Shown: piece by piece, positions 4,778-61,600 of the stretch
Layout: each line of letters begins with the position of its first letter
How positions within the stretch are numbered: position 1 is the stretch's first letter
Source of the DNA: a virus
Lineage: Duplodnaviria > Caudoviricetes
Virus record (IMG/VR): IMGVR_UViG_3300042691_041259
Span: 32,001-96,000 of that record
Reading direction: 5' to 3' (one strand)
Length of the DNA: 64,000 bases
The notes under the pieces: model-generated
What the model saw: only the letters and a program-made list of their open reading frames with translations
Told to the model about the DNA's origin: nothing
Databases searched by the model: none
Program-made: the position numbers and the translations under genes

Positions 4778-4798
4778 CCAGACTAATTATACTTTTTC

Positions 4799-4806
4799 TA
4801 TATATC
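4799..4806 (-). promoter_or_regulatory. Putative late promoter GATATATA upstream of tape measure gene
   Basis: Same 8-mer sits 20-40 nt upstream of several virion genes; analogous to the T4 late promoter TATAAATA. Confidence 0.6.
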
Positions 4807-4815
4807 AATAGAAAC

Positions 4816-4850
4816 AAAAAAAGAACCTGGCATAAACCAGGTTCTTTTTT
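4816..4850. terminator. Rho-independent terminator (symmetric)
   Basis: AAAAAAAGAACCTGG-cataaa-CCAGGTTCTTTTTT directly after the stop at 4849. Confidence 0.85.
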
Positions 4851-5187
4851 AAAATTTCATATTACCAAAGTTTGGCATTTTACCGCCAGATGAGAGCCCC
4901 TTAAACATGCTTTGCTGCTGATTCATCATGCTGCTCATGTTCGGCATACTGCCTTGGTTTTCTTCTTCTTTCTTCCTTCGTGTATTTTCTTCTTCTACTT
5001 TTTCTTTATGAATTTCAAGTAGGACTTCCGCCCTCCAAAAATCCATTCTGTCTAATTCACTTGGCTGAAGCCTGAGAGTCTTTAGTAAGACGTACTCAAC
5101 CTCACACCAATTCATCAAGGATATCTGGAATAAGGAAAATAGATTTGACCCCTCCGCGAAAGTTGAGAGGCACTGAGTCCTCCGCAC
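4849..5187 (-). CDS. T4 gp51-like baseplate/tail assembly protein (start uncertain; first ATG at 5115; may be made as a frameshift extension of the upstream gene)
   Basis: FQISLMNWCEVEYVLLKTLRLQPSELDRMDFWRAEVLLEIHKEKVEEEN resembles the gp51 pattern (SLxNYY..F.LM.....SL.ELE.M..W.R..Y..LL.....EEN); lies between gp26-like gene and tape measure. Confidence 0.55.
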   Translation of the reverse strand: MRRTQCLSTFAEGSNLFSLFQISLMNWCEVEYVLLKTLRLQPSELDRMDFWRAEVLLEIHKEKVEEENTRRKKEEENQGSMPNMSSMMNQQQSMFKGLSSGGKMPNFGNMKF

Positions 5188-6049
5188 CCCGCTCGTTTAC
5201 ATAACGTACTTCAGGATTGATAGAACTTGCCAGCATTGAAGTGATCTTTTCCATCAAAGAGATTTTTTGAATTGACCATGTAAGAGATTCTTGCAAAGTG
5301 GATTCATATTCTCTTTCAGTTAATCCTTTCCACTCGGGAAACAGGAACGGCGCATACTTTAAAAAAGCTTTGTCAAACTGTTGTTGTCTTTGAGCTTTAT
5401 TCTTTGCGTAATTCTTAATAAAAGTCATTACGCCAAGACTTGGGAAGTGAAGTTCAAATTTTTCGCCGTTCTTCATTTGGAAGATAAATGATCTGCTGTC
5501 CGGATTATAGTACTTCATCAGTGTTTCATCCGGGTTAAAGTAGTTAAGAACATCTTTTGTAATCTCAATTTTGTCCTCGGTGCCATCTTCATTTTGGAAA
5601 GTTGTATAGAGACGGTTTTCTCCATTCTTAAACGTGAAATCACGAATTGCAAAAAGAATGTAAAAACGGTCAATCTCTTTCAAATCTTTGAAATTGGCTG
5701 GACGGCCTGCCATACGAATACGGCAGCATCGCTCAATTACAAAGTTAAGCATGTCATCAATACCTAACGCATCATTTTCATCAATAGTAGACCAATGACG
5801 GATTTCTGCAACAGAAGCTGCGCGAATTGCAACCTCAGATCCTATTGGGTAAAATAGTCCTTGAGATGGCAGGTTCTCAAGCGGTAGGTTTTTCCAGCCG
5901 ATGTCTCCTGACAGTGGTGATTCTTCAGGCTGGGCAAACTTTTGAGCTTTACCTAGCGAAGTTAATTTTGCAACTGGCTCTGAACCTTCAGCCTGTTCCA
6001 CTAATTTACGTGCTTCCTCTTCGAAAGCATTATTTGTTTCTTCAGTCAT
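5102..6049 (-). CDS. T4 gp26-like baseplate hub / tail assembly chaperone
   Basis: LPSQGLFYP...IRAASVAE resembles the gp26-family N-terminal LPS.G..Y...IR motif; position between tube and tape measure. Confidence 0.6.
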   Translation of the reverse strand: MTEETNNAFEEEARKLVEQAEGSEPVAKLTSLGKAQKFAQPEESPLSGDIGWKNLPLENLPSQGLFYPIGSEVAIRAASVAEIRHWSTIDENDALGIDDMLNFVIERCCRIRMAGRPANFKDLKEIDRFYILFAIRDFTFKNGENRLYTTFQNEDGTEDKIEITKDVLNYFNPDETLMKYYNPDSRSFIFQMKNGEKFELHFPSLGVMTFIKNYAKNKAQRQQQFDKAFLKYAPFLFPEWKGLTEREYESTLQESLTWSIQKISLMEKITSMLASSINPEVRYVNERGAEDSVPLNFRGGVKSIFLIPDILDELV

Positions 6050-6070
6050 GCTTTTTATATTTTTGTTTTC

Positions 6071-6096
6071 TTATATAACCGGGTTTAAAAAAGTTT
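6071..6096 (-). promoter_or_regulatory. Bipartite promoter AAACT-N13-TTATATAA
   Basis: Variant of AAAC(T/C)-N13-GAATATAA motif found before several replication genes. Confidence 0.45.
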
Positions 6097-6106
6097 TGAT
6101 TTTTGC

Positions 6107-6135
6107 AAAAAAAAGGTCTCCGAAGAGACCTTTTT
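6107..6135 (-). terminator. Rho-independent terminator after tail tube gene
   Basis: Stem AAAAGGTCTC/GAGACCTTTT with TTCG loop on the minus strand followed by a T8 run. Confidence 0.9.
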
Positions 6136-6154
6136 ATATGTTTTGACTTTCTGA

Positions 6155-6718
6155 TTAGAGAATAGTTTCTTCCCAGTAGTCTGCGCGAAGTTGGAATCCA
6201 GTGATACGGAAGATTTCGTTATCATTGAAGTCCGCGTTTGCTGGCATTGGTAATGCCACCATTGGGAACACCTGAGCGAAACGAACCTGACGGTAGATGT
6301 CACCTGCTTTGTTAAAGAAGTTGACGATCATTGGTCCACCCATGTAGTCTCTTTTCAGACCCATGCGGCCAGTCAGTGGATCGTAGATCAGATCACACCA
6401 TTTACGGAGTGCTTTGTAAACGTATGCCGAGTTGTTATCGTCAAGGTTGATTTCAAAGTCGAGCGTAAGATCGACTGAGGTATCACCTGCGATAGAACCA
6501 CCAGCGAATGAACGTCTTGCAGATTTATATTTCTGCTCAACCAATGCTGGCATCTTATTGATAGCGATTCCATCTACTTTTAACACTTGCTCCATTACCA
6601 AGTCCCAACCACCTACTGCGGGAGGGGGAGTAAGGAGTACCTCGAACTGGGCAATGTAGAGAGGCTCATACTTTGCCATAGAGGCTTTCGAATTTCTAAA
6701 ATGCGGTAGTCCTGCCAT
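6155..6718 (-). CDS. gp19: Tail tube protein (T4 gp19-like)
   Basis: 187 aa directly downstream of sheath; YEP....QFEV, LRKWCDLIYDP.TG, and VFP...ADYWEE features typical of gp19-like tubes. Confidence 0.85.
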   Translation of the reverse strand: MAGLPHFRNSKASMAKYEPLYIAQFEVLLTPPPAVGGWDLVMEQVLKVDGIAINKMPALVEQKYKSARRSFAGGSIAGDTSVDLTLDFEINLDDNNSAYVYKALRKWCDLIYDPLTGRMGLKRDYMGGPMIVNFFNKAGDIYRQVRFAQVFPMVALPMPANADFNDNEIFRITGFQLRADYWEETIL

Positions 6719-6759
6719 TGCTTTATTTTTTTATTTTTCTTTCTTTTGAATTATTTTGA

Positions 6760-9700
6760 TTAGCCAGCTACGAATCCACCTGAAGAAATTGTTCCAGTCT
6801 TCAAGATAGTGATTCTGTTGATGAATTTCTGCAGACCGCGTGATGGCTCGATTCCAACGTCGATGATACCGAAGTTTTGGTCGATCACAGCAGCGCTGTT
6901 GTTAGTTTCATCCATGATTACCTGGTAATCATAAATTCCTCCTGCATTTCTTACAGTGTCGAGGTAGTTTTCTACAATTGTACGAATCTCAAGACGGGTT
7001 GATGCGTCGTTAAATTCGAAGAGGTATTGAGCAAGTACGTCCTCAATAGCTTCAGATACAGTGATCAGAAGATCTCTAACGTGAAGGTTATTGAAAGCGG
7101 ACAGTGTTGTTTGATAAGCTGTCTGGTTAGCGAAGATCATTGGTCCAATTCCTTTCACAGTTACGATTGGGTTGATACCAAATGGCTCGAGGTATTCACG
7201 ATCCTGAAGCAAGTACTCAAACTCGAGACCTGCAAACTTTGGATTTGAGATAACCCCGCGACGTGGACCAGCAACGATTGAGTAAGGAAGACCTTGAATG
7301 AACTTTCTTACAAAGTTGTTAGATACGTCAGCCGCTGGTGGAATGCTCTTATTGGTGTTATCTTCACGAATAATGATATTCGGAGAGAATACGCCAATGA
7401 ACTTAGCACCATTTTCTTCATCAGGCAGAGAGAATCTAAAGCTTGGTCCAAGGCTAAGGTTACCACCTTCCGCGATATACGATGTATTCAAGGTTGGTCT
7501 TGGGTTACCCGCAGCTGGATCTGGAAGTTCGGTGAACCTTGGATCAGTGCTAGCAATGAACTGCTTGATTGATGGAGCGTTAAGAATTGCCATACATTTT
7601 TGACGATCTCTTGCAAGTCTTGCCAAGATAGATTTCGGTCCCATCTGTGGAGCGATACCACCATTAAAGGTATCAATCACATAACGGAAGGAAATAATAT
7701 CGCGGCTAGCGAGTGTCTTCGCAATGTTGGTATTCTCAAGTACACCATAGATTTTGTCAATCTGTGCGTCAGTGTTGTTTGGCAAATGGTAGTCGTTAAG
7801 GACGTAACCATTCAACAAAGTAAACTGCAGACGATCACAGAAAGTTTGGATCGGAGTGTACTTAGTAATAGTGTTTGTGGTAAAGTCAACCGCAGGTACA
7901 TCAAGTACAGTGTATTCGTATGTTACCACACCAGTTGAAGGATTTACCTTCTTGATTTTGTCAGTAATACGAGTCAATCTTGGAGTAGCCGAGTTATCTA
8001 CAATCAGATCGCCAACTGTAAGGTTAACAGAATCTGCTGCAGAAACCTGGAATTTCTTACCGCCAGATGAAAGGGTACCAATGATTGTAATGTTAGAACT
8101 GATGTTCTTTCCGGTTGCAGAGTAGAACGCCAAGTAGTTTTCCTCGGGAATTGCGTTATCAAACACGGTTCCATCAATGTAAGTTTCATCAAGAACTGCG
8201 TATGTAGCACTAGCACGTGTTACCAAATCGGTAGCGGTGTACTGTGTTACACGACAGCCGCTGAGACCGTACGCAATTTGCGAGTATACGTCCACAGAAC
8301 CTGTAGCCGCACCTTTGCTCCATCTTTTGGTAATACCAAGGTAGTTGAATTCCGAAGCACCGGTATCGTACTTTACGCTATCTCCATTAACAACCAAGTT
8401 TTGGTTAACGTTAATGTTCAGCTTAGAACCAGGATACGCTTCAACGTATTTCAAATCAAAAAGACCTGCGCCTTCTACATATTCGCCAGTAGCGTCGGAC
8501 TCCATGGTAAATGAAATACCGGATTGAACCAATTTTACCACAAAAGTATCTGCGCCCGCGCCAAGGTCACCGGTTCCAAGAGCCACTGTATTTGCGCCAA
8601 GTCCAGATACGAAAGCAACTTGTGCAACTCGAGCACCTGCCGCACTTCCAGTGTAAGTGATGTTTGTTATGTAAAACGGACCAGCACCGATAAGAACATT
8701 AGCCGATACAAAAGGTGTAATTGAGCCATTTTGATACAGTTCAACTTCTACTGAAGAGTAAATTTCACCAGTGCTATTGTCTGAAGGTACGCCAGCTGCA
8801 ACAAAAGTATTACCAATTCCGTCAAATGATTCCACGGTAGTGGTAGGATTGATTGCAAAAGTCAAGCTGTCTCCAAAGTCAACGCTGTCAAGAGTCAGAC
8901 CCAGGTTAGGAACCAGGCTATTTGCATTTACATCAGGAATTGCGGCAGGAACGTTTAAAAGATCTCCTTTAAAGAGAGTTACTTTGATATCGGTAGCCTG
9001 TACTACAGATTCAAAATCTGCAATGTCTAGACCGAGTGTTCCCCACTTATTGAAGTAATAAGGAGCGGCGTCATAGATGCCAGAAACTCCAGAGTCTTCA
9101 ACCGTGATAATGCCGCCGGCGTAAGAGGCTACTTGATAGTACTTTGCAAAGCCGGGAAACTGTACCAGGATAAAGTCTACATTTACGCCTGCAACAGGAG
9201 CGGCAGGTGTTAGCGTAGTGTCAGCTTCATCCTTAAATGTTCCTACTTCAATTTCGTTAGCTGTGCCAGGAATCAAAGTAGCTGTGGTAGTACCAATGAT
9301 GTTATCAAAGTAACCAACTTTCTTGTGAAGCGGTGAGCTCAATTGAATTTGCAATTCTGTGCCAGTGTCAATTACATTGTCAACTTTCACATAGTCATCA
9401 GGGCTTTCAGTAGCAAACGTGTTTACACCGTAAGTCTTGAATATAGTGTTATTTGAAATGTTATCTACCAAAAACTGGTATTGCGAAGGCAAGAACACTG
9501 CATCAGCTGGTTCAGGCTTAGGGATAACCAAAACGTTGTTAAAGTTACCGCTTCTGCCTCCAAATGGCTGTGATTTAACGTAGATCTGAACTGTTGAAGT
9601 TAACAGACCAGCACCTGCGCCATCATAGATAGTTACGCCATTATCTGGAGAATTTGCTGGATCCAAATCATCAGTTCCAACATATTCAAGAACATTTTTG

Positions 9701-19966: not shown

Positions 19967-20012
19967 AAAGGTGGAAGAAAAAAATCTAGAGGCTGATAGT
20001 TATTAACAAAAA

Positions 20013-20705
20013 TTACACCACGCTACCAGTACCCATGTAGGTCCAGCTTGTGCCAGCAAGGTTACCTCTCCAAACTTTACTGGTTGTAGAAGCTGATTGC
20101 GCTACGGATGGGGAATCAAAAGGACCAGCACTATTTTGAAAATTGGTTTTTGCTCGAGTTTCAATCCATTGATACAGGTTGTCCCTGTAAAAGTTTAATA
20201 ACCATGTTGAAGGTAGAGTCTCACCAGACGGGCCGCTGTACGCATAGCCAGAAACTTGAATAATTTTTACAAAACTTTTGTTTCCGCTGCTACCGGTTTG
20301 GTAGTATATGTTATGCACATCTCCATCATCATTGGTCACCGGGCTGCCAATGGCAGAAGGCTTAAAAAATAGATCTCCTGGATTAGAGGTATAGTATTTT
20401 ACTACACCAGTTGCAGATCCTGGTGCTGATGGACCTGCTATAGAAAAATACACACCAGGGTTTGCTGGGTCTGTAAAATATATGAAACTGTTGGTTCCAA
20501 CATACAAATTTGTGGAAGATATATTTTCAATTGAAAAAGAAACTGGAAGCACTATAGCAGTAGTAGTAGAGTTGAATTCAGCGAAAGGAGTATCATAACT
20601 ACCGCTATATGTAGTGTATCCTGCATAAGAAGGCCAACCAAGCGTGGAAGCGCTAAAGTTCCACCCATCAGAGGAATTCATAAAAGATACTGGGTATACT
20701 ATCAT
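20013..20705 (-). CDS. Fibre-associated Ser/Thr/Gly/Tyr-rich beta protein (possible tip/adhesin)
   Basis: Starts 6 nt after the fibre stop; composition and position typical of fibre partner proteins. Confidence 0.5.
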   Translation of the reverse strand: MIVYPVSFMNSSDGWNFSASTLGWPSYAGYTTYSGSYDTPFAEFNSTTTAIVLPVSFSIENISSTNLYVGTNSFIYFTDPANPGVYFSIAGPSAPGSATGVVKYYTSNPGDLFFKPSAIGSPVTNDDGDVHNIYYQTGSSGNKSFVKIIQVSGYAYSGPSGETLPSTWLLNFYRDNLYQWIETRAKTNFQNSAGPFDSPSVAQSASTTSKVWRGNLAGTSWTYMGTGSVV

Positions 20706-20710
20706 ACAGC

Positions 20711-23700
20711 TTAATAATTTTGAACGTATGATCCATAGTAAGATGTTCCATCGTACACAAAGGTATAGATGTCAGTCTTATTGACAGTAGGTGTCATGGT
20801 AGGTGTTACGCCACCTGCCCAAATCACTGTTCCTGGCCATGTTACTGTGAAAGAAGAACTTGCGTTCTGCTTTATTATGAATATGTAGGTTCCGCCTGCA
20901 TTTGGATTTGTAAACGCAAATGTGGTTGAAGCGTTCAGCGTATATGATTGAACGTTTCCACTATCAAAGTCAACAGTGGTAGAGGCTGTAGTGTTTCCGT
21001 TGGCATCAATTACTACGTATGCTTGTCCTGTGACTGCCGCCTTTCCGGTAAGAGAAAGAACGTTTCCGTCAAATGTAAGGTTAGTTTCTGCATTAAGAAC
21101 TCCGGATGTTCCTGTTGCGGATAAGACTCTGTTATCCGCATCATTATTAACAGTTACCAAACCGCTGGTTCCAGAGCTTCCGCTTGAGCCAGATGTTCCA
21201 CTAGAGCCAGATGTTCCGTCAATTCCACTGGTCCCACTTGAGCCAGAGGTTCCGTCAATTCCACTGGTCCCACTTGAGCCAGATGTGCCTGATCCACTAG
21301 TGCCACTTGTTCCGCTTGAGCCAGAGGTTCCAGAGCTTCCGCTTGTGCCAGAGGTTCCTGAGCTTCCACTAGTTCCATTTATTCCAGAAGTTCCGCTTGA
21401 GCCAGAGGTTCCTGAACTACCGCTTGTTCCACGGGTTCCGCTTGAGCCGCTTGAGCCAGATGTTCCGCTTGAGCCAGATGTTCCGCGTGTTCCGCTAGTA
21501 CCGCTCGAGCCAGATGTTCCACTTGAACCATTTAATCCAGGAGTCCCTGGATCTCCTGGATTTCCAGAAACTCCGCTTGTCCCGCTTGAGCCAGAGGTTC
21601 CAGCCTGTCCCGTAGTTCCCGATGTTCCACTTGAGCCAGAGGTTCCGCTTGAGCCAGAGGTTCCGCTTGAGCCAGAGGTTCCTCGAGTACCGCTAGTTCC
21701 ACTTGATCCCGATGTTCCCGAAGATCCTGTTGTTCCACTAGTTCCTGAGCTTCCACGAGTTCCACTGGTTCCTGAACTTCCACTAGTTCCGGAAAAACCA
21801 GAAGTTCCCGAGCTACCGCTTGAGCCAGAAGTTCCGCTTGAGCCAGAGGTTCCTGAGCTTCCATTAGTACCGGATGTTCCCGAAGATCCTGTTGTTCCAC
21901 TAGTTCCCGAGCTACCGCTGGTCCCGCTTGAGCCACTGGTTCCTGAACTACCGCTTGTTCCGCTAGACCCGCTAGTACCATCTATGCCACTGGTTCCGCT
22001 AGTACCATCTATGCCACTGGTTCCACTAGAGCCGGATGTTCCAGAAGTTCCGCTTGAGCCAGAGGTTCCGCTTGAGCCAGAGGTTCCGCTTGAGCCAGAG
22101 GTTCCTGAACTTCCACTAGTTCCATTTATTCCAGAAGTTCCACTTGAACCAGATGTTCCTGAGCTTCCGCTCGAGCCCGATGTTCCGCTTGAGCCTCTAG
22201 TTCCAGAAGTTCCGCTTGAGCCAGATGTTCCGCTAGAACCAGATGTTCCAGAACTTCCACTAGTTCCATTTATTCCAGAAGTTCCACTTGAACCAGATGT
22301 TCCAGAACTTCCACTAGTTCCATTTATTCCAGAAGTTCCACTTGAACCAGATGTTCCGTCAATTCCGCTGGTTCCGCTGGAACCAGAGGTTCCATGTGTA
22401 CCAATACCGCTAGTGCCGCTTGATCCAGAGGTTCCGCTGCTTCCACTAGAACCTGAGGTTCCCGAGCTTCCGCTGGTTCCACGCGTTCCACTAGTTCCCG
22501 AACTTCCGCTAGTACCGCTACTTCCACTGGAACCGGAGGTTCCGCTTGAACCTCGGGTTCCCGAGGTGCCAGAACTACCACTAGTTCCGTGTGTACCAAT
22601 ACCACTAGTTCCGCTAGAGCCAGATGTTCCGCTAGAGCCAGATGTTCCGCGTGTTCCACTAGATCCAGAAGTACCACTAGTGCCACTTGATCCAGAGCTT
22701 CCGCTGGTTCCGCTTGATCCTCTTGTTCCTGATGTACCGCTGCTTCCGTTGGTTCCGCTTGAGCCAGAAGTACCGCTTGAGCCAGAAGTGCCGTGAGTTC
22801 CAATTCCGCTAGTTCCGCTTGAACCGCTCGAGCCAGAGGTTCCGCTCGTACTGCTACTTCCACTGGTACCGCTAGTTCCATCAATACCTGAAGTACCCGA
22901 TGTACCATCAATACCGCTAGTTCCGCTGGAACCTGAAGTTCCGTGAGTTCCAATTCCGCTTGTACCGCTGCTTCCGCTTGTTCCGCTTAAGCCAGATGTT
23001 CCTGAGCTTCCGCTTGTTCCGCTTGAGCCAGATGTTCCTGAGCTTCCACTAGTTCCACGTGTTCCACTAGTTCCTGAGCTTCCGCTAGTTCCCGAGCTTC
23101 CACGTGTACCGCTAGTTCCCGAACTTCCACTAGTTCCATGAGTACCGATACCACTAGTTCCACTAGATCCAGATGTTCCTCTAGTTCCGGAAGATCCACT
23201 AGTTCCTGAGCTTCCACTAGTTCCACGTGTTCCACTAGTTCCTGAGCTTCCGCTAGTTCCCGAGCTTCCACGTGTACCGCTAGTTCCCGAGCTCCCACTA
23301 GTTCCGCTTGAACCAGCTGTTCCGCTTGAGCCAGAAGTTCCGGAGCTTCCACTAGTACCGGATGAACCTGAAGTTCCGCTTGATCCAGACGTTCCTGAGC
23401 TTCCGCTGGTTCCATCAATACCGCTGGTTCCTGAAGACCCATCAATACCGGATGTTCCCGAGCTTCCGCTGGTTCCTTCGGTTCCGCTAGTTCCCGAGGA
23501 ACCGCTTGTTCCATCAGTTCCGCTTGTTCCATCAGTTCCCGAGGAACCGCTTGTTCCATCAGTTCCGCTTGTTCCATCAGTTCCACTAGTACCGTTAATT
23601 CCTGAGGTTCCGGAAGTTCCGTCAATTCCTGAGGTTCCACTGGTTCCGTCAATTCCTGATGTTCCGCTTGAACCGGAGGTTCCTTCAGTACCACTAGTTC

Positions 23701-25111
23701 CTGAAGATCCGCTTGTGCCATCTGTTCCTGAAGAACCACTAGTGCCATCTGTTCCTGAAGAACCACTAGTACCATCTATGCCGCTGGTTCCGGAAGTTCC
23801 ATCAATTCCTGAGGTTCCGCTGGTTCCATCAATTCCACTGGTTCCTGAAGACCCACTTGTTCCTTCAGTACCGCTAGTTCCGCTAGTTCCATCAGTTCCG
23901 CTGGTTCCGCTAGTTCCATCAGTTCCGCTGGTTCCATCAATACCTGAAGTTCCGCTAGTTCCGTCAATTCCTGAGGTTCCACTGGTTCCGTCAATCCCTG
24001 AGGTTCCGCTAGTTCCATCAATCCCTGAGGTTCCGCTAGTTCCATCAATACCGCTGGTTCCACTTGATCCGCTAGTTCCATCGGTTCCGGAGGTACCGTC
24101 AATACCGCTAGTTCCCGAAGTTCCATCTATTCCGCTGGTTCCCGAAGTTCCATCTATTCCGCTGGTTCCGGAGGTACCGTCAATACCGCTAGTTCCAGAG
24201 GTGCCATCAATACCGCTAGTTCCCGAAGTTCCATCTATTCCACTGGTTCCACTGGTGCCATCAGTTCCCGAACTACCGCTTGTTCCACTGGTGCCATCAG
24301 TTCCTGAACTGCCACTAGTACCATCGGTTCCAGAAGTTCCATCTATACCACTTGTTCCGCTAGTTCCGTCTATGCCACTAGTTCCAGAAGTCCCATCTAT
24401 CCCAGAGGTTCCCGAGCTTCCACTAGTGCCGCCGCCTGCCGCTCCAAATAAATTTACTTCCCAACTTGTATGACTGCCAATACCAGAAGATGATGTAACA
24501 TCCACGGAAAGGCTTCCTGTAAGCGGATTATATGTTGTTACAGATCCTTGCATATAAGATGAAGGAGTACCTGTAAGAGCAATTATGACAGACTGTGAAG
24601 TTGAATATGCTAATCCCGGATCAACTGTTAGAGAAATGATCCCGGTTCCTATAGTTAAAGGACTGGTTGAATTTGTTTTATATTTGTCTCCGCTTAAACC
24701 CGAGCTTCCGCTGGTTCCATCAATACCTGAAGTTCCACTAGAACCTGAAGTTCCACTGGTACCTTCAGTACCTGAAGTTCCACTAGAGCCACTGGTACCA
24801 GAAGATCCTGAACTACCCGAAGTTCCGGAGGTGCCATCAATTCCGCTTGTTCCGCTGGTTCCGTCTATACCTGAAGTTCCTGAAGAGCCTGAAGTTCCAT
24901 CAGTTCCCGATGTGCCTGAAGATCCTGAAGAGCCCGATGTCCCTGAGTTTCCTGAAGATCCTGAAGTTCCGCTGCTACCACTGCTTCCTGCGGTTCCAGA
25001 AGTACCTGCTTGTGCCAGCGCTTGAAGATAAAGAAGGTTATCATCCATCTCGCGGATGGTAAGCTTACTTCCTTTTGCGTTGGGACCGTATTCTCTTGTG
25101 ATTAATGGCAT
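20711..25111 (-). CDS. Long fibre protein with G-X-Y (collagen-like) repeat stalk
   Basis: N-term KGSKLTIREMDDNLLYL fibre-anchor-like motif; about 1190 aa of Gly-X-Y triplets; C-term beta domain (VDFDSGNVQSYTL...GGTYIFIIKQ...TWP..VIW.GG.TPT...D.YTFVYDG..YYG) common in phage fibres. Confidence 0.85.
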   Translation of the reverse strand: MPLITREYGPNAKGSKLTIREMDDNLLYLQALAQAGTSGTAGSSGSSGTSGSSGNSGTSGSSGSSGTSGTDGTSGSSGTSGIDGTSGTSGIDGTSGTSGSSGSSGTSGSSGTSGTEGTSGTSGSSGTSGIDGTSGSSGLSGDKYKTNSTSPLTIGTGIISLTVDPGLAYSTSQSVIIALTGTPSSYMQGSVTTYNPLTGSLSVDVTSSSGIGSHTSWEVNLFGAAGGGTSGSSGTSGIDGTSGTSGIDGTSGTSGIDGTSGTDGTSGSSGTDGTSGTSGSSGTDGTSGTSGIDGTSGTSGIDGTSGTSGIDGTSGTSGIDGTSGTSGIDGTSGTSGIDGTSGTDGTSGSSGTSGIDGTSGTSGIDGTSGTSGIDGTSGTSGIDGTSGTSGIDGTSGTDGTSGTSGTDGTSGTSGTEGTSGSSGTSGIDGTSGTSGIDGTSGTSGIDGTSGSSGTDGTSGSSGTDGTSGSSGTSGTEGTSGSSGTSGIDGTSGTSGIDGTSGTSGINGTSGTDGTSGTDGTSGSSGTDGTSGTDGTSGSSGTSGTEGTSGSSGTSGIDGSSGTSGIDGTSGSSGTSGSSGTSGSSGTSGSSGTSGSSGTAGSSGTSGSSGTSGTRGSSGTSGSSGTSGTRGTSGSSGTSGSSGTRGTSGSSGTSGIGTHGTSGSSGTSGTRGSSGTSGSSGTSGTRGTSGSSGTSGSSGTSGSSGTSGLSGTSGSSGTSGIGTHGTSGSSGTSGIDGTSGTSGIDGTSGTSGSSSTSGTSGSSGSSGTSGIGTHGTSGSSGTSGSSGTNGSSGTSGTRGSSGTSGSSGSSGTSGTSGSSGTRGTSGSSGTSGSSGTSGIGTHGTSGSSGTSGTRGSSGTSGSSGSSGTSGSSGTSGTRGTSGSSGTSGSSGSSGTSGSSGTSGIGTHGTSGSSGTSGIDGTSGSSGTSGINGTSGSSGTSGSSGTSGINGTSGSSGTSGSSGTSGSSGTSGTRGSSGTSGSSGSSGTSGSSGTSGINGTSGSSGTSGSSGTSGSSGTSGSSGTSGTSGSSGTSGIDGTSGTSGIDGTSGSSGTSGSSGTSGSSGTSGSSGTSGTTGSSGTSGTNGSSGTSGSSGTSGSSGSSGTSGFSGTSGSSGTSGTRGSSGTSGTTGSSGTSGSSGTSGTRGTSGSSGTSGSSGTSGSSGTSGTTGQAGTSGSSGTSGVSGNPGDPGTPGLNGSSGTSGSSGTSGTRGTSGSSGTSGSSGSSGTRGTSGSSGTSGSSGTSGINGTSGSSGTSGTSGSSGTSGSSGTSGTSGSGTSGSSGTSGIDGTSGSSGTSGIDGTSGSSGTSGSSGSSGTSGLVTVNNDADNRVLSATGTSGVLNAETNLTFDGNVLSLTGKAAVTGQAYVVIDANGNTTASTTVDFDSGNVQSYTLNASTTFAFTNPNAGGTYIFIIKQNASSSFTVTWPGTVIWAGGVTPTMTPTVNKTDIYTFVYDGTSYYGSYVQNY
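21161..25006 (-). repeat. Gly-X-Y triplet array (GTS/GSS/GID/GTD/GTE/GTR/GTH/GIN)
   Basis: Two blocks (about 25006-24690 and 24428-21161) separated by an ~85-aa non-repetitive domain; 9-nt periodicity with synonymous codon variation. Confidence 0.95.
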
Positions 25112-38812: not shown

Positions 38813-39997
38813 TTAGAAGAGCTGTGTTCTTACAATAATTTCAGGTGAGATTGGTGGAAGACCGATTGCTGAAATGAAACGGTTCAGTGGTTCAATCAAT
38901 CCTTTGGAAAACTGTGTGTCGTAATCAACCGGAGGAGCAAGCTCAGCCGGGAAGTTTCCGGGAAGGAACGCAAATACGTTTTCCTCACCGCGTTCTGCTT
39001 TTGCATAATAATACCGCACCTTATCGCCTGAGCGAATGAGCTGGTATTTGCCTTTCCACTTAGAAGTATTCAACAAATAATTATGGTAACCAGCCGCTCG
39101 AACGTGGATTGGACAACCTGAATTGATTACCAATTTCTTTCGATCTTCGGATATTCCTTTTTCATAGTCGCCAACGGCTGAAGAGAACGAAACGTTCTCA
39201 ATGTTTTCCATAATGAATGTTTGCTTTTCCTTCTTTAAGATTTCCGCAAAAGCTTTCAAATTAAGTTTGTTCTTTTCCCGGAAAATGTATTCCAGCATAG
39301 TCTTCATTCGAAGACGAATGAATGAAGGAGTAGACGACTGCGCAATTTCAACGCCTTTTGCTTTAATTTTCTTTTGAGGTTCATAGAAAACTCCAGGATC
39401 TTTCCAACGAATGTCCAATACATACTTTTTCTTACGAAGGAAGATTGCAGAATATGAGATTGTTTCCATCTCAAGATCTTGTATGTTCTCAGTTCCCCAT
39501 AATTCGGCATATCTATCAAATGCTTTTTTAAGGTAGTCCTTTAGTCGATGATTATAGACGCCAAGAACAAAATTAGTTGGATCCTCACCAGCCCAGTCCG
39601 AGCCAAACAGAGGTTCCTGAAAAGAAACGTAAGCCGAATCGGTGTCGCCATAGATTGTGACTTCGCCTTTTACAATTTCGGCTTTCGTAATACCAAGCTT
39701 TTTGTGGAGCTCAGTATCACGATGCCAAAATTCTTGGAAATACCTGTTAATGGTTTTAGATACAAACTTAATAATGTCTTGACCTTGCAGCGTAATGGCT
39801 TCCGCAACTCTTACATTATAGCCTACAAAGTAAGGCGATGCCGTTGCACCATAGATTGAGTTGATGAAGATTTTTATTGCCTGCTCCTCGTTAGTTTTTT
39901 CATTCATTACAAGGCTCAGTCGAGCAATTTCAGCCTGGATTTCTTCTCGCGAAGAAGCCGCTGGATCAATTTTACAATGTTTGTATTCTATCGTCAT
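38813..39997 (-). CDS. Family B DNA polymerase, C-terminal subunit (gp43B-like)
   Basis: Motif B KIFINSIYG, motif C IYGDTDS, KKKY, KAKGVE; lacks exonuclease and motif A. Confidence 0.92.
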   Translation of the reverse strand: MTIEYKHCKIDPAASSREEIQAEIARLSLVMNEKTNEEQAIKIFINSIYGATASPYFVGYNVRVAEAITLQGQDIIKFVSKTINRYFQEFWHRDTELHKKLGITKAEIVKGEVTIYGDTDSAYVSFQEPLFGSDWAGEDPTNFVLGVYNHRLKDYLKKAFDRYAELWGTENIQDLEMETISYSAIFLRKKKYVLDIRWKDPGVFYEPQKKIKAKGVEIAQSSTPSFIRLRMKTMLEYIFREKNKLNLKAFAEILKKEKQTFIMENIENVSFSSAVGDYEKGISEDRKKLVINSGCPIHVRAAGYHNYLLNTSKWKGKYQLIRSGDKVRYYYAKAERGEENVFAFLPGNFPAELAPPVDYDTQFSKGLIEPLNRFISAIGLPPISPEIIVRTQLF

Positions 39998-52566: not shown

Positions 52567-53946
52567 TCAAACTATATATTTTTTCAATTCCTCAATCTCC
52601 TGTTCTATTTCCTGAGCGGTCTTCTTGGCCGCCTTTCTTTTTCCATAGTATTCAACCAGGATACTTTTGAATACCGATTCTTCATCTCGCGTAAAGATTG
52701 CGCCTGACGCTGTTTTAATGTACTTTTCCAGATCCACTTCTTCGCCAGGTGCCACGTTCTTTACGTAACTTTCCGGAGAGATATTCCACTGCCTCATTAC
52801 CGTCGGGTACAGAGAAGCGAAGTCAAAGGAGGTAACCCACTGATAGAGTCCGGTCTTGGGCTCGTGCACAAAAGCACCTTCATAAGCCTCGCGCTTTTTC
52901 TTGGAAGTATCCGCCTTTGGAAATACTCGATTTCTTCGGCAGTTTTCTCGAGCCATTGCAGCTTCCGCCATCCAGATTGGAGAATACGCTCGAGTGGCTT
53001 CCACCTTGGAAATGTTTCCTAGTTTGAGGAACGCCATCATGGTGTTCAGCTTACGGTCAATCATCTGTACAAGCTTGGCATCCACCGCATTATAGAAAAC
53101 GTATTGGTCAAAGTCAGATTCGTAAAGCTCTTGAAGAGTACCCGAGTACTTTACCTTTTGTACGCCTAATGCAGCTTTGGCTACCCAGTCCAGTGTATTG
53201 TTTTCTTTTACATCAATACTTCTATCCCACTTCTTATATACATCCAAATAATCCACTACCAATCGGTGCTGTGGAAGTTCATCTTGTCCTACAAGCTTTC
53301 GAGAAGGAGAAGCGGCAGAAGGATCAATATTGAGACGTTTGCAGCGGTTAATCAAATAAGTCCAGTCAAAACCTATGAAGTTCCAACCAGTGATTACCGG
53401 CATTTTTTGAATTGCCTTGTAAAAGAATGTGTATAACATATCATACTCAGACTTAAAGTACAAGTAACTAAAGTCAACTTCCTCTTTCAGATATTCATTA
53501 ATGCGCTTTCCAATTGACTCAATCTCCTCGGCTTTGAGAACTTTGGTTCCCATTACAATGATCTTGTTTTCTCGGCAAAAAGCCACTGTGGTTACAGGAA
53601 ACTTGGCAGTCTCTGGCTTAGGCCACTCATCGGTAACTTCTACCTCGATATCCACAAAGAACTTCTTGGGTATGTTGAACTCGTAAATGTCACGAGTCTC
53701 TTCTTCGGGAAGAGACCATAAGTATTCTTCCAACCTCCACTTACTCAAGAATTTTGCTCTTCTTTTTTTCACAGCCTTCCCATCCCAGCTCTTAACGCCC
53801 GGTTCAGCCTGACGATCTCGCTCATCGCAGTATTCCCATTCATACATTTCTGATGACGGAATGAGAAACTTTTTAATGGCAATGTCGCCGTCCTTGTCAA
53901 AAAAGGATATTTGAAGAGTTGAATCTCTTTGTTCGATATCTATCAT
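52567..53946 (-). CDS. Family B DNA polymerase, N-terminal subunit (3'-5' exonuclease + motif A; gp43A-like)
   Basis: ExoI FVDIEV, ExoII GWN..GFD..YL, ExoIII YN..DA.LV, YEGAFV.EP, motif A FDFASLYP..M; ends in finger helix ...GKRKAAKK. Confidence 0.92.
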   Translation of the reverse strand: MIDIEQRDSTLQISFFDKDGDIAIKKFLIPSSEMYEWEYCDERDRQAEPGVKSWDGKAVKKRRAKFLSKWRLEEYLWSLPEEETRDIYEFNIPKKFFVDIEVEVTDEWPKPETAKFPVTTVAFCRENKIIVMGTKVLKAEEIESIGKRINEYLKEEVDFSYLYFKSEYDMLYTFFYKAIQKMPVITGWNFIGFDWTYLINRCKRLNIDPSAASPSRKLVGQDELPQHRLVVDYLDVYKKWDRSIDVKENNTLDWVAKAALGVQKVKYSGTLQELYESDFDQYVFYNAVDAKLVQMIDRKLNTMMAFLKLGNISKVEATRAYSPIWMAEAAMARENCRRNRVFPKADTSKKKREAYEGAFVHEPKTGLYQWVTSFDFASLYPTVMRQWNISPESYVKNVAPGEEVDLEKYIKTASGAIFTRDEESVFKSILVEYYGKRKAAKKTAQEIEQEIEELKKYIV

Positions 53947-56456: not shown

Positions 56457-57059
56457 TTAGGATAGGTAGCCTGAGATAAATTTAGAGTCTTCTACCAAGG
56501 AATCAAAAGTGTTTTCTACGTTCTCATCAATATCACTGATATTGTAACATACAATGAAACCAATGAGTTTCTTCTTAATGCAAAAAATTGGAACTGTTAC
56601 AAATTGCTGAATTCCAAGTCGATCCATTTCCTGGCGGTCTTTCATTTCAAGGTCTTCACTTAGTGTTGAGAAGCATTCCTTTTTAAGCATTGTAGAAATC
56701 CAGCGTGGGTATTCTGATGCCAAAATGTTCTGATGATCCCGTTTAGTCTTTTCATAGCCAGGCGCCACAGACTCATAGGTCATAGAGAATTTTTTCATGC
56801 TTCTTCCTTGAAAATACTTTCCACCGTTGTGGAACTGGAAAATTGAGGCCCGGTCAAATTGGTGTTTTTCTCTCAGTCCGTCCAGCCATTCTTGAACCTG
56901 AATCATTTCTTCAATGTCAGACTCCTCAATGTTTTCCTCTTTTTCTTTTGCATTTTTCGCTTTCCTATTGTCATAGTTATTCTTTACCATAACCGTGATT
57001 AGTGCAGCAACTATTGATCCTGCAGCTGTAATGACAGCCTTTAATAATTCCGTGTCCAT
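56457..57059 (-). CDS. Possible T4 gpT-like holin (single N-terminal TM + GAF-like domain)
   Basis: TM helix AVITAAGSIVAALITVMV, then DRASIFQFHNG...S..YE...PI......GFI GAF-like pattern. Confidence 0.5.
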   Translation of the reverse strand: MDTELLKAVITAAGSIVAALITVMVKNNYDNRKAKNAKEKEENIEESDIEEMIQVQEWLDGLREKHQFDRASIFQFHNGGKYFQGRSMKKFSMTYESVAPGYEKTKRDHQNILASEYPRWISTMLKKECFSTLSEDLEMKDRQEMDRLGIQQFVTVPIFCIKKKLIGFIVCYNISDIDENVENTFDSLVEDSKFISGYLS

Positions 57060-57219: not shown

Positions 57220-57906
57220 TTACTTGGGCGGAGCAAGATCCAACTCTTTCATCATATCAACTAGTTCGTTGTATCCGATTTCGCGAAAGTCTTTTTCCAA
57301 CCGCTTTCTATCTGTGTGAGGTGATCCTGAGACTACCTCAGATATTTTCTTTTTCAACTTGTCATCTCCGGTGTCAAATGCGGAAAGAATTCTTTGCACA
57401 TTTACATCACCTAAAGCCATTTCTTCAATATAGGCTTCATAAAGTTTAACGTGTTTCATCTTTTTCTTCTTTTTCTTTTTTGTTCCGGCACCGAAAGTAT
57501 CTCCGCTTCCAACTTTACCAGAAGCGGCAGGTGTAACGTTTCCCATACCTGGTGTATTTGCTACGCTTGCAGCTGGCGCGCCAAAATCTTCTTCAACCTT
57601 TTTTGACTTTTTACCAGTCACAAAATCCATAAAAGCTTGGACCAGCGGATCTGTTTGATCACGCTTCATTGCCATTGCTTGACCAGCCATCATCTGTGGT
57701 TGAGTATCCCACCAGTAGTAGTATTCTTCCACATGGTTAGGTAGCCCTTCATGTTTTGTAGAAGCAAAGTCCTTCAGCTGTTTTAATGTCATGGAATCCG
57801 CAAGGTCTTTTACCTCATCACTTGCGTCTTTTGGATCCATCTCATCTTTTTTCAAGGCGTATGCCATGGCCATCAATTTTTGCTGGGCTTTGGATGTTGC
57901 TGGCAT
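57220..57906 (-). CDS. DUF3008-like N-terminus fused to an internal capsid-targeting-like motif
   Basis: MPATSKAQQKLM...MT.KQL.DFASTKH.GLP; internal KKKKKKK-MKHVKLYEAYIEE (Met at 57459). Confidence 0.75.
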   Translation of the reverse strand: MPATSKAQQKLMAMAYALKKDEMDPKDASDEVKDLADSMTLKQLKDFASTKHEGLPNHVEEYYYWWDTQPQMMAGQAMAMKRDQTDPLVQAFMDFVTGKKSKKVEEDFGAPAASVANTPGMGNVTPAASGKVGSGDTFGAGTKKKKKKKMKHVKLYEAYIEEMALGDVNVQRILSAFDTGDDKLKKKISEVVSGSPHTDRKRLEKDFREIGYNELVDMMKELDLAPPK

Positions 57907-57907
57907 A

Positions 57908-58090
57908 TTATTTGCCTCCTAATGTTATGATTGATTGACGAGCATCCTCAATTGCTTGTAAGGTCTGCTTCATATTCTTGTCATCTGCAATTGATGAAGC
58001 CTCATCAAAGCACTTTAAGATTTCTTGAAGCTGCGGAGTTAGCGCCTCTTCAATTGACATTTTTTCTTTGAATTCTCCAAAAGACCTCAT
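57908..58090 (-). CDS. Small protein with T4-CTS-like N-terminus
   Basis: Begins MRSFGEFKE. Confidence 0.65.
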   Translation of the reverse strand: MRSFGEFKEKMSIEEALTPQLQEILKCFDEASSIADDKNMKQTLQAIEDARQSIITLGGK

Positions 58091-58422
58091 TTCTGTGACG
58101 TTAATTTTTCGTGGATTCTCTTGCCTTCTGCAGACAGAGTATAGTACTTGATTCCTTCTTCCTCTTTCAGTTTGAAATACTTGGAATTAGCTTTCAGCCA
58201 ACCAGTATTAGTCTTTCTACCAGTTTCTTCATTCATCATCTTCAGGAACTGTGACATTTCTTCTTCACTCACCTTTCCTTTTTCGTTAACAAGTGAAAGG
58301 ATTCTTTCTCTGACTGGCGCATAGTTGGAAACCACCTTTTGGGGGTGCGACTCCGTGTATTTTCTTTTTACAACTACTATCGCTTCGTTAAGGAATTCGT
58401 TATATGATTTTACATGACTCAT
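58087..58422 (-). CDS. Protein with capsid-targeting-like N-terminus and winged-helix-like body
   Basis: Begins MSHVKSYNEFLNE; C-term YYTLSAEGKRI resembles a wHTH wing; GATAAATA at 58444-58451. Confidence 0.75.
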   Translation of the reverse strand: MSHVKSYNEFLNEAIVVVKRKYTESHPQKVVSNYAPVRERILSLVNEKGKVSEEEMSQFLKMMNEETGRKTNTGWLKANSKYFKLKEEEGIKYYTLSAEGKRIHEKLTSQK

Positions 58423-60191: not shown

Positions 60192-61079
60192 TTATCCAAT
60201 TCCTTCGGGCAGCGGAAGCCCGGAATCATCAAGCTTTTTCTTATAGTCGCTCATGATATCATTTAAGCTTCCAGGATACTTAAAGTCTCCGGAAGTGAGC
60301 AACGAATAAAGTTTTTCATACGTATCAATATCAGAAGGCTTATGTCCACCATTAAATAGCAAGTCTACCACGCCTTGCGGCTCTCGAGTGATGAGTTTGT
60401 CATATTCGCTTAGAAGCTTCGCGGTCTTTACTAGTCCTTTCTTGCCTTCAAAGCTTTTTCTTACTTCCACAATGCCTTGATTTAACCTAACCACGTAGGC
60501 TTTGTACTCGGCAGTTTCTCCTTTGTCGGTTGTCTTTGTGGCCTCGAAAAAAGACTTGCCAATTGCTGCCATAAGCAAAAGGTTTCGGTATGCTCCTTTG
60601 TATTTAGACTCCGCAATTCGAAAGTCGGGTGAGTGGTAGATAAAAGTGCTCCATTCCAGGTCAGTGGAAAGCATGAGGTCAACTTGCCCAACACCATTTT
60701 TATAGTCTCCACCGATTGGAGCTCCAATACTTACTTGATTGAATCCTACTGCAAGTTTGGTGCTCATACCCATATCTTTTAATTTGTCATTCAAAGCAAA
60801 CAGAACTTTCTCGAGAGACACTCCTAAATGTCCAGCAATCTTGTCAGCCGAAACCGCCAAGTCAATGTCTCCGCTGGTTTGATCCGCCAATTTTTTGCCG
60901 GCACTTCCAAGAATTGCTGCATCATCTTTTATACCAGTTAGACCAATCTGTGGAAACACATTTTTTTCTACCCATGCTATGGTAGATTCTATTTGATCCT
61001 GTTTAAAAGGCACGGCATTCTCAATGGAGTTTCCGCTTTCAAATATGAACTGTTCAAATAGCTTAACGTATCTTTTCAT
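60192..61079 (-). CDS. Pol-beta superfamily nucleotidyltransferase with capsid-targeting-like N-terminus
   Basis: Start MKRYVKLFEQFIFE (TAATG coupling at 61079); ILGSAGKK....SGDIDLAV and QVDLM (hGS..DhD..D triad). Confidence 0.85.
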   Translation of the reverse strand: MKRYVKLFEQFIFESGNSIENAVPFKQDQIESTIAWVEKNVFPQIGLTGIKDDAAILGSAGKKLADQTSGDIDLAVSADKIAGHLGVSLEKVLFALNDKLKDMGMSTKLAVGFNQVSIGAPIGGDYKNGVGQVDLMLSTDLEWSTFIYHSPDFRIAESKYKGAYRNLLLMAAIGKSFFEATKTTDKGETAEYKAYVVRLNQGIVEVRKSFEGKKGLVKTAKLLSEYDKLITREPQGVVDLLFNGGHKPSDIDTYEKLYSLLTSGDFKYPGSLNDIMSDYKKKLDDSGLPLPEGIG

Positions 61080-61600
61080 TATTCCCAGTCTTTTCTCTTT
61101 GATGCTTCTGAAGCAGTTAGCCATTTTCCATCAACTACATCATAGTAGATTGAATCGTTTGGCTCGCCTGGAAAGATTAGCGAACAGCCATTGCTGCCAC
61201 CGCCAGCGTGCTTATAGCTATAGTTAAGAGTTGCCCAGATATATGGTGCAAACTCAAAGTTTTCACCAGACGCCTTGTTAATCTGTGGGAATCCGCCGCC
61301 AGAAAAAGTATTGATATAGACTTCAGCAAAACCATATTGCATAACACCTAGATCTTTACCGGTTAGTGGTTTGCTGTCGAAAGAAATACGCTTGCCGTGT
61401 GCTTTAGCAGTTAGCGCATTGTATTTAATTCCTTGGCGGCTTAGCAAATCGTTAAGAGCCGGACCGGCGTTCTTAAGAATATCAGCCATTAGGGTTGCTT
61501 CATCCTTGAATTTAGGATTGCTGGTGTAAAGAGTGTTGTCTTCGTTGAGGACATCAGCATTTTCGTTCAAATAGTTATCAAAAGACTTAATGTGTTTCAT
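61079..61600 (-). CDS. Protein with capsid-targeting-like N-terminus
   Basis: Begins MKHIKSFDNYLNE. Confidence 0.8.
   Translation of the reverse strand: MKHIKSFDNYLNENADVLNEDNTLYTSNPKFKDEATLMADILKNAGPALNDLLSRQGIKYNALTAKAHGKRISFDSKPLTGKDLGVMQYGFAEVYINTFSGGGFPQINKASGENFEFAPYIWATLNYSYKHAGGGSNGCSLIFPGEPNDSIYYDVVDGKWLTASEASKRKDWE

Follow-up and report, generated by a model that had tools for sequence, protein, structure and literature searches.

African swine fever virus (ASFV) packages its polymerase X (Pol X; O174L) in the virion together with a ligase and an apurinic/apyrimidinic (AP) endonuclease (PMC12172490), and in Phaeocystis globosa virus a polymerase X fused to a ligase (PgVPolX) acts as one repair enzyme (PMC5537341). 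RlaP, an RNA-ligase-associating Pol-beta nucleotidyltransferase (NTase; PF10127) that includes T4 NrdC.11 and Pseudomonas RlaP, is common in jumbo phages (PMC7824862) and extends damaged RNA at its 3' ends by one or two nucleoside monophosphates ahead of ligation (preprint 10.64898/2025.12.29.696909). In phage T4, unrelated cargo proteins have in common a short N-terminal propeptide, the capsid-targeting sequence (CTS; MKTYQEFIAE), which is transferable to foreign proteins and in which residues 4 and 7 serve targeting and residues 8 and 10 serve processing by gp21. Here, we analyze 64,000 nucleotides (the window) of the 202.5-kb Caudoviricetes record IMGVR_UViG_3300042691_041259, comprising its positions 32,001 to 96,000 and belonging to the genome record, estimated to be 66% complete, of a large, uncultivated phage related to T4. 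Within this window we describe a gene encoding a putative Pol-beta-type NTase behind a T4-like leader peptide, and we tentatively propose that its product is packaged in the phage head and extends polynucleotide 3' ends.

ASFV Pol X is the closest structural and biological analog of this protein, which is modeled, like it, as a minimal enzyme of a palm and a C-terminal thumb. The two share approximately 12% identity and no profile-level sequence match. The phage protein exceeds ASFV Pol X by 120 residues, its beta-rich insertion is larger, and it has additional C-terminal helices, an N-terminal GGN segment, and a predicted cleavable leader. RlaP, also a Pol-beta NTase, is tied genomically to ligases and end-healing enzymes, as the phage NTase is to ligase-like and end-healing-type domains, and RlaP-type 3'-end addition is the function that we favor for the phage NTase. 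However, membership in RlaP itself was rejected, since no PF10127 match is found in the protein or in the six frames of the genome (E ≤ 1) and the C-terminal domain differs, being all-helical in RlaP and modeled here as a polymerase-X-like, beta-rich thumb. The partners differ as well, with RtcB/Rnl operons on the side of RlaP and DUF6267-type KxDG proteins plus HIGH-motif NTases (HIGH NTases) on the side of the phage NTase, and RlaP is not known to be packaged in virions.

IPI, IPII, and IPIII, which are internal proteins of T4, resemble the precursor described here in carrying a short N-terminal propeptide with targeting aromatics and a gp21-cleaved I-x-E. The present leader, whose cleavage and targeting role are predicted, is 3 to 4 residues longer at the N terminus (MK[HY]VK-), precedes an enzyme of approximately 32 kDa, in contrast to the small, basic internal proteins of T4, and occurs on dozens of genes. 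Finally, PgVPolX has a parallel in the frequent fusion of the present family to KxDG ligase-like domains, but it is a canonical family X enzyme with lyase activity from a eukaryotic giant virus, and its ligase domain is of the NAD-dependent LigA type, whereas the ligase-like domains here are of the DUF6267 type.

A viral enzyme family with a polymerase-X-like predicted fold

The longest open reading frame (ORF) at this locus begins mechanically at an upstream ATG, position 61124, but the starts of homologs coincide with or adjoin an MK(R)YVKLFEQF leader, and we therefore place the start of the NTase at 61079 (Table 1). There it overlaps the stop of the preceding gene, which suggests cotranscription and coupled translation inside a block of tagged genes. 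The family is large: it comprises 228 homologous clusters at 90% identity, and a library of 1.84 billion proteins yields 1037 viral or metagenomic representatives at E ≤ 1e-3. All members with a known taxon are viral. Two peptide patterns, sensitive to close relatives only, retrieved no close relative from 185,579 species-representative prokaryote genomes. The protein matches no Pfam family at E ≤ 0.1, has no meaningful PHROG or NCBIfam match, and remains without a PDB sequence match when a profile of 104 sequences is used; TAL-effector, CWC2, and HtrA entries in the sequence searches were discarded as weak chance matches.

An original prediction, made from the sequence alone, had described an intact Pol-beta triad behind an N-terminal tag, and this holds: LGSAGKK, SGDIDLAV, and QVDLM are all present, and their residues are conserved in two alignments, one of 35 close homologs (60 to 91% identity; A1) and one of 104 diverse homologs (down to 25% identity; A2). 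G58, S59, G61, K62, K63, D71, D73, Q132, and D134 are invariant in A1, while in A2 G58 is invariant and the other eight are at least 90% conserved. The protein thus displays the features of the Pol-beta superfamily, namely, hG[GS] followed 9 to 13 residues on by D-h-D, a third carboxylate, and an alpha-beta palm. Past the palm, Y160, K161, G162, A163, R165, and N166 are invariant in A1 (R165 at least 90% conserved in A2), and, judged by position only, this motif may correspond to the YFTGS/helix-N region of polymerase beta. The protein is apparently an active enzyme.

The AlphaFold2 (AF2) model built from the 104-sequence alignment reaches a predicted local distance difference test score (pLDDT) of 94.7 and a predicted template modeling score (pTM) of 0.90. 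Fold searches, which cover residues ~7 to 264, recover the NTase fold that had been predicted, and the top matches from Foldseek and other structural searches are all Pol-beta-fold enzymes. Among structural representatives, family X DNA polymerases rank first: the palm-thumb portion of polymerase beta (3k75; Z 9.7, 186 residues aligned), ASFV Pol X (5hr9; Z 9.5, root mean square deviation 3.2, 161 of 176 residues aligned), and terminal deoxynucleotidyltransferase, polymerase lambda, Thermus PolX, and Leishmania polymerase beta (Z 9.2 to 9.4, 163 to 189 residues). Terminal uridylyltransferases, MenT, alarmone synthetases, cGAS/DncV-like nucleotidyltransferases (CD-NTases), and CCA-adding and poly(A) enzymes follow at Z ≤ 8.1 over the core of approximately 100 residues only. 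The order of matches was the same with a first, poorer model, and Foldseek agrees. In addition, a cluster of viral PolX proteins that contain the Pfam palm and thumb domains aligns with template modeling (TM) scores of 0.52/0.54 over 209 residues.

These matches span the palm and the C-terminal thumb (nascent-base-pair) subdomain of family X at the fold level only, and the corresponding profile signatures (DNA_pol_B_palm and DNA_pol_B_thumb) were not found in the protein with Pfam at E ≤ 0.1. Some 40 residues precede the palm, and the model contains neither helix-hairpin-helix fingers nor an 8-kDa domain; since ASFV Pol X lacks them too, their absence is compatible with a minimal member of family X. 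Five beta strands lie between residues 179 and 231, with helices after them, and the additions relative to family X are the N-terminal GGN segment, the enlarged beta insertion, and the additional C-terminal helices. On the family X-first ranking, the NTase is best described as a minimal polymerase-X-like palm and thumb by modeled structure, while by sequence profiles it is not a member of family X.

Ligase-like partners and the choice of substrate

Counting genes within 6 kb of the NTase in 65 related loci, we observe a ligase-like gene in 25, a HIGH NTase in 20, and a homolog of the downstream gene, which here encodes 559 amino acids, in 29. The order ligase-like gene, HIGH NTase, NTase, and 559-aa gene is contiguous in, e.g., loci L023 and L024. 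The cassette is split in this genome, with the NTase and the 559-aa gene falling within the window, and the latter accompanies the NTase in all loci with at least 49% NTase identity. The NTase follows a KxDG protein in phages Atu_ph07 and Phosso as well, and the Atu_ph07 neighbor shows a weak RNA_ligase (PF09414) match (E 0.002).

The 559-aa protein has no Pfam or PDB sequence match, a PDB profile search included. Its N-terminal part contains an EK-x-[DE]-A stretch resembling ligase motif I (family consensus EKFDAYRFSF), and its C-terminal third is homologous to HIGH NTases, with HxGH lost or degenerate: positions ~393 to 578 of its profile (A3) match stand-alone HIGH NTases at E 8e-18 to 2e-4 and the 194-aa HIGH NTase of the same genome at E 1.3e-9. 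It therefore looks like a ligase-motif-I-like part fused to a HIGH-NTase-like third. Equivalence to the DUF6267 and HIGH part of the fusion protein P0245 was considered and rejected, as BLASTP and hhalign showed no relation. Across the family formed by DUF6267 proteins and the 440-aa KxDG protein of this genome, KxDG is invariant and an EG resembling ligase motif IV is nearly so, and GE/D-hydrophobic and K-x-V-D-R stretches resemble motifs III and V in our reading of the alignment; from these motifs we infer that the family is ligase-like. The 440-aa protein itself has no BLAST similarity to P0245.

The association extends to gene fusions. In P0132, a HIGH NTase and the NTase are combined with a domain that shares 32% identity (E 1e-76) with the 440-aa KxDG protein, and other members are fused to DUF6267, to a HIGH NTase, or, in a whole cluster, to PD-(D/E)XK. 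The NTase is also part of proteins of 1500 to 1800 aa, which further contain HD and Nudix domains, an AAA_33 kinase, and a CCA-adding enzyme together with its RNA-binding domain, and a leaderless fused homolog adjoins a 2H phosphoesterase. The earlier view that the substrate cannot be read from the sequence was thus too pessimistic, in that palm-and-thumb architecture, fusions, and linkage point to extension of polynucleotide 3' ends. This role is favored over protein AMPylation and cyclic-nucleotide signaling by the fold and by the ligase-like, HIGH-NTase, CCA, kinase, HD, and PD-(D/E)XK context.

As to the polynucleotide, we favor RNA (tRNA) end repair, at about even odds, over DNA gap filling, to which we give something over a third of the weight. 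We lean to RNA because the domain company consists of CCA enzyme, kinase, HD, and 2H, and DNA stays well in play because of the polymerase-X fold and the PD-(D/E)XK fusions. The alternative that survives best accordingly concerns DNA, and holds that the enzyme is a minimal polymerase X packaged in the virion, which would act on the injected genome by filling in recessed ends or short gaps for a ligase to seal, as a counterpart of the ASFV set. The top structural neighbors, thumb included, are all DNA polymerases of family X, viral PolX-ligase pairings exist in ASFV (PMC12172490) and Phaeocystis globosa virus (PMC5537341), the nuclease fusions make up a whole cluster, and the gene neighbors a module of T4-like genes for DNA replication and repair, an NAD-dependent DNA ligase among them. 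However, the larger fusions hold RNA-repair-type domains, a 2H phosphoesterase is found as a neighbor, the Atu_ph07 KxDG neighbor leans to RNA_ligase, and the cassette shows no AP endonuclease or lyase domain and the NTase no helix-hairpin-helix DNA-binding fingers. Taken together, we regard a DNA gap-filling role as rather unlikely, if worth keeping in view.

A putative capsid-targeting leader

The N-terminal tag of the NTase behaves as a detachable T4-type capsid-targeting leader, as seen in its enrichment, its match to the T4 CTS, and the existence of leaderless homologs, and to this extent the original prediction is borne out. A strict pattern (M, 1 to 5 residues, then aromatic-x-x-aromatic-hydrophobic-x-E/D) occurs at 15 ORF starts in the 202.5-kb record, whereas shuffled sequence yields 0.83 on average and never more than 3. 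With a looser pattern, 11 ORFs of the window, all on the minus strand, start with a sequence like MK[HY][VI]K-x-[FY]-[ED]-x-[FY]-[LI]-x-E. The leader-bearing ORFs of this genome are otherwise unrelated. NTase residues 8 to 14 (FEQFIFE) align with residues 4 to 10 of the T4 CTS (YQEFIAE), the common core being aromatic-x-x-F-[IL]-x-E.

In the close homologs (60 to 91% identity) the leader equals the catalytic core in conservation, and it is disordered in both structure models of the NTase. Among the 270 family members compared, a short leader whose end, hydrophobic-x-E, directly precedes [SG]GN is found in 194, and 22 are leaderless, starting M-GG exactly where the leader ends. A further 28 have longer N-terminal extensions, and the hydrophobic-x-E junction before GGN is found in all six of these that were inspected. 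Such a distribution of leaders and leaderless forms is the pattern expected of a detachable module removed by a protease. From these sequence features we infer cleavage and head packaging of the NTase.

Several other proteins bear on the leader as a module. In some orthologs (P0062; loci L021 and L022 of related contigs), a first leader is followed by an additional domain of ~80 residues and then by the NTase, which is preceded by a second leader-like junction (...SFVVE|SGN), in the manner of a small polyprotein. In a 228-aa ORF at 57220-57906 (minus strand), an N-terminal DUF3008 (E 9e-11) is followed by a stretch of lysines and then by the leader sequence in an internal position (MKHVKLYEAYIEE at 57459); either this ORF represents two genes, or it encodes a precursor of two modules with a protease site between them. 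The tagged genes also surround one for a 200-aa protein (56457-57059, minus strand) that contains a GAF domain (E 2e-5) and, by prediction, a hydrophobic segment at its N terminus. Just past the end of the window lie an ATP-grasp enzyme with a canonical leader (G000:C1:96290-97378) and a ferritin-like neighbor starting with the leader-like MKTFQTFK (97387-97959), which correspond to L073 (791-1879 and 1888-2460). The presumed cargo may therefore include metabolic enzymes besides nucleic-acid enzymes.

A homolog in the Atu_ph07 virion

In BFVD, the best structural match of the NTase is the Atu_ph07 protein AUZ94877.1 (TM 0.71/0.75), which belongs to the family by profile search (E 1.7e-27). It corresponds to gp65 of the published numbering, both by its position relative to gp70 and by its predicted mass of 32.16 kDa; matching of masses covered eight consecutive Atu_ph07 genes, seven of which are identical to the values of Table S5 (gp66 is unlisted). 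Mass spectrometry of Atu_ph07 virions identified gp65 by 10 unique peptides, at a coverage of 36.8% (PMC6102473 Table S5). Annotated as a hypothetical protein, it resembles the NTase in family and in adjoining a KxDG ligase-like gene, and it differs in being leaderless (starting MGGRAF), in its identity of only ~21%, and in coming from another jumbo-phage lineage.

We also observe that nearly all genes of Atu_ph07 gp53-gp69 (MF403008.1, ~40 to 54.5 kb) have their products in the virion proteome, ten of which are ~30 kDa in size (gp55-gp62, gp64). Several proteins of this stretch start with an M-R-x-x-Q-L-[LI]-E-like peptide, which is possibly Atu_ph07's own targeting leader.

Proposed function and alternatives

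We propose, with a probability of roughly 0.45, that the NTase is a head-packaged, 3'-end-extending enzyme of a ligase-centered repair kit. The protein would be made as a precursor whose 14-residue T4-type leader carries it into the prohead core, where a phage gp21-type prohead protease would cut after Glu14 (F-I-F-E | S-G-N). The mature enzyme, starting at GGN/SGN, would then remain in the head and enter the cell with the DNA. There it would add nucleotides to 3'-OH ends of a damaged polynucleotide for a ligase-like partner to seal, the candidate partners being the DUF6267-type KxDG protein and the 559-aa neighbor, with the HIGH-motif NTase in the same module.

A number of observations weigh against this proposal. 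On the enzyme side, the similarity to family X is moderate (Z <10, ~12% identity) and undetected by Pfam, NCBIfam, and PDB sequence profiles, and the putative ligase identity of the partners is drawn from motifs, the one weak RNA_ligase match, and language-model look-alikes. Moreover, no other RNA-repair genes were found in this genome, which has one tRNA only; searches of it for DUF6267, RNA_ligase, and the head domain of CCA enzymes came back empty, and AAA_33 gave weak P-loop matches only. On the packaging side, the Atu_ph07 virions were purified with polyethylene glycol only, and some replication proteins are listed in their proteome too, at low coverage (PMC6102473). gp65 is associated with the virion despite having no leader, so that a leader is not required there. 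In addition, the conserved EGGN motif begins with E14, which could for that reason be structural instead of a protease site. Finally, a gp21-type prohead protease gene was not found in this 66%-complete record; on the gene order of T4, it would be expected past the end of the contig.

Some of these points would suit an ordinary, unpackaged cytoplasmic enzyme, in which the leader would be a translation-initiation region, a DNA-level recombination cassette, or another sorting or degradation signal. The missing protease gene and the leaderless gp65 are in keeping with such an enzyme, as is the finding that the T4 late promoter TATAAATA is not enriched in this genome. However, the leader fits the T4 CTS at its key positions (aromatics and I/L-x-E), it is conserved as protein over 60 to 91% identity and on unrelated proteins, leaderless homologs start at its end, and internal domain borders bear the same junction. 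Furthermore, a gp21-type prohead protease is encoded in all five long related contigs that encode an NTase homolog, and a homolog is found in virions. We therefore judge a purely cytoplasmic enzyme to be unlikely. The remaining alternative, among the options listed in the original prediction, is an enzyme that acts elsewhere than on polynucleotide ends, such as a synthase of cyclic oligonucleotides or of the alarmone type, an adenylyltransferase of proteins or small molecules, or a toxin NTase like MenT/AbiEii directed at host signaling or translation. It is very improbable, as the matches of the palm to CD-NTases, small alarmone synthetases, oligoadenylate synthase (OAS), and MenT1 (Z 5.7 to 7.7, ~100 residues) are to the generic core and are exceeded in length and score by those to family X (for CD-NTases, Z 5.7 to 6.9 with the helical C-terminal lobe outside the alignment), no effector, sensor, antitoxin, or CBASS-type partner is seen near the gene, and the recurrent partners are ligase-like and end-healing-type domains.

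The proposal of a packaged 3'-end-extending enzyme can be carried further, to a whole pathway of PolX-like end filler, DUF6267 ligase, and HIGH-motif (nicotinamide mononucleotide adenylyltransferase-like) NTase that would be preloaded in the head by means of T4-type leaders, matured by the head protease, and injected with the genome. It would form, at the protein level, an immediate-early counterdefense kit that repairs host-inflicted breaks of tRNA or of the incoming DNA before phage gene expression, widespread in large aquatic T4-related phages, in which the HIGH-motif NTase may regenerate the adenylate donor of the ligase. In this full extent the idea is attractive but doubtful.

Features of the locus and phage context

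The features of the gene and of its partners are collected in Table 1.

Table 1. Coordinates of the NTase gene, its parts, and associated genes (positions in the window unless another contig or locus is named)
Feature	Position	Strand	Basis or remark
NTase precursor ORF, 295 aa	60192..61079	minus	ORF call and sequence, homologous clusters, AF2 model
Leader, residues 1-14 (MKRYVKLFEQFIFE), T4 capsid-targeting-sequence-like propeptide	61038..61079	minus	Predicted cleavage after E14
Predicted mature enzyme, residues 15-295	60192..61037	minus	Family-wide SGN/GGN motif; A1, A2, N-terminus statistics
GS loop and two metal-binding aspartates, G58-S59...D71-x-D73 (GSAGKK...SGDIDL)	60861..60908	minus	A1/A2; model strands E54-57, E71-77
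Strand with third catalytic aspartate, Q132-V-D134-L-M	60672..60686	minus	A1/A2; strand E130-138
Y160-K-G-A-Y-R-N166, start of first helix after palm	60582..60602	minus	Helix 162-176 in model
Upstream tagged gene, 173 aa	61079..61600	minus	Stop shares one base with NTase start (TAATG)
Untagged downstream neighbor, 559 aa	58454..60133	minus	Lies in block of tagged genes
Tagged 111-aa protein (MSHVKSYNEFLNE...)	58087..58422	minus	Conserved with NTase/559-aa pair; in 27/65 related loci
Tagged HIGH NTase, 194 aa (PGRFQPFHNGH)	G000:C1:97960-98544		
KxDG protein, 440 aa	G000:C1:99156-100478		Less regular leader-like N terminus
L023 cassette	ligase-like 4100-5401; HIGH NTase 5405-6004; NTase 6001-6885; 559-aa-type 6898-8178		

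The window encodes a T4-type replication set, consisting of a split family B polymerase, UvsX, a gp41-like helicase, and a gp46-like nuclease, as well as topoisomerase II subunits, an NAD-dependent ligase, and ribonucleotide reductase. A UvsW-like helicase lies just past the end of the window, and a fragment of a gp23-type capsid gene is found at the very end of the record. The family B DNA polymerase occupies two genes ~12.5 kb apart (38813-39997 and 52567-53946, minus strand) and is reported to be split in Atu_ph07 too (gp276/gp277).

In closer relatives (L068 to L071) the gp21-type protease domain lies within ORFs of 629 to 693 aa, and in a more distant 360-kb phage it is a protein of 217 aa; this lineage may have a fusion of the protease with a scaffold or core protein. 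Elsewhere in the window, GC content rises to 0.50 at 20001-24000 (~0.40 elsewhere), inside a 1466-aa ORF (20711-25111) with long overlapping ORFs on the opposite strand, and this ORF may encode a compositionally biased, repeat-rich structural protein.

Implications for phage biology

Proteins injected by phages are the first phage molecules to meet host defenses, and to our knowledge few injected enzymes are known besides T4 Alt, internal proteins, and virion RNA polymerases. Here, we describe a large, unannotated viral enzyme family (>1000 clusters) that is polymerase-X-like, tied to ligase-like partners, and apparently carried in the capsid. The packaging claim can be checked directly in a cultivated phage because of the link to the Atu_ph07 virion proteome. 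If it holds, nucleic-acid repair would join the functions that phages package in advance, and DUF6267 and its partners would gain a testable role. The family would then also be a source of compact end-modifying enzymes and of a natural, generalizable tag for loading capsids.

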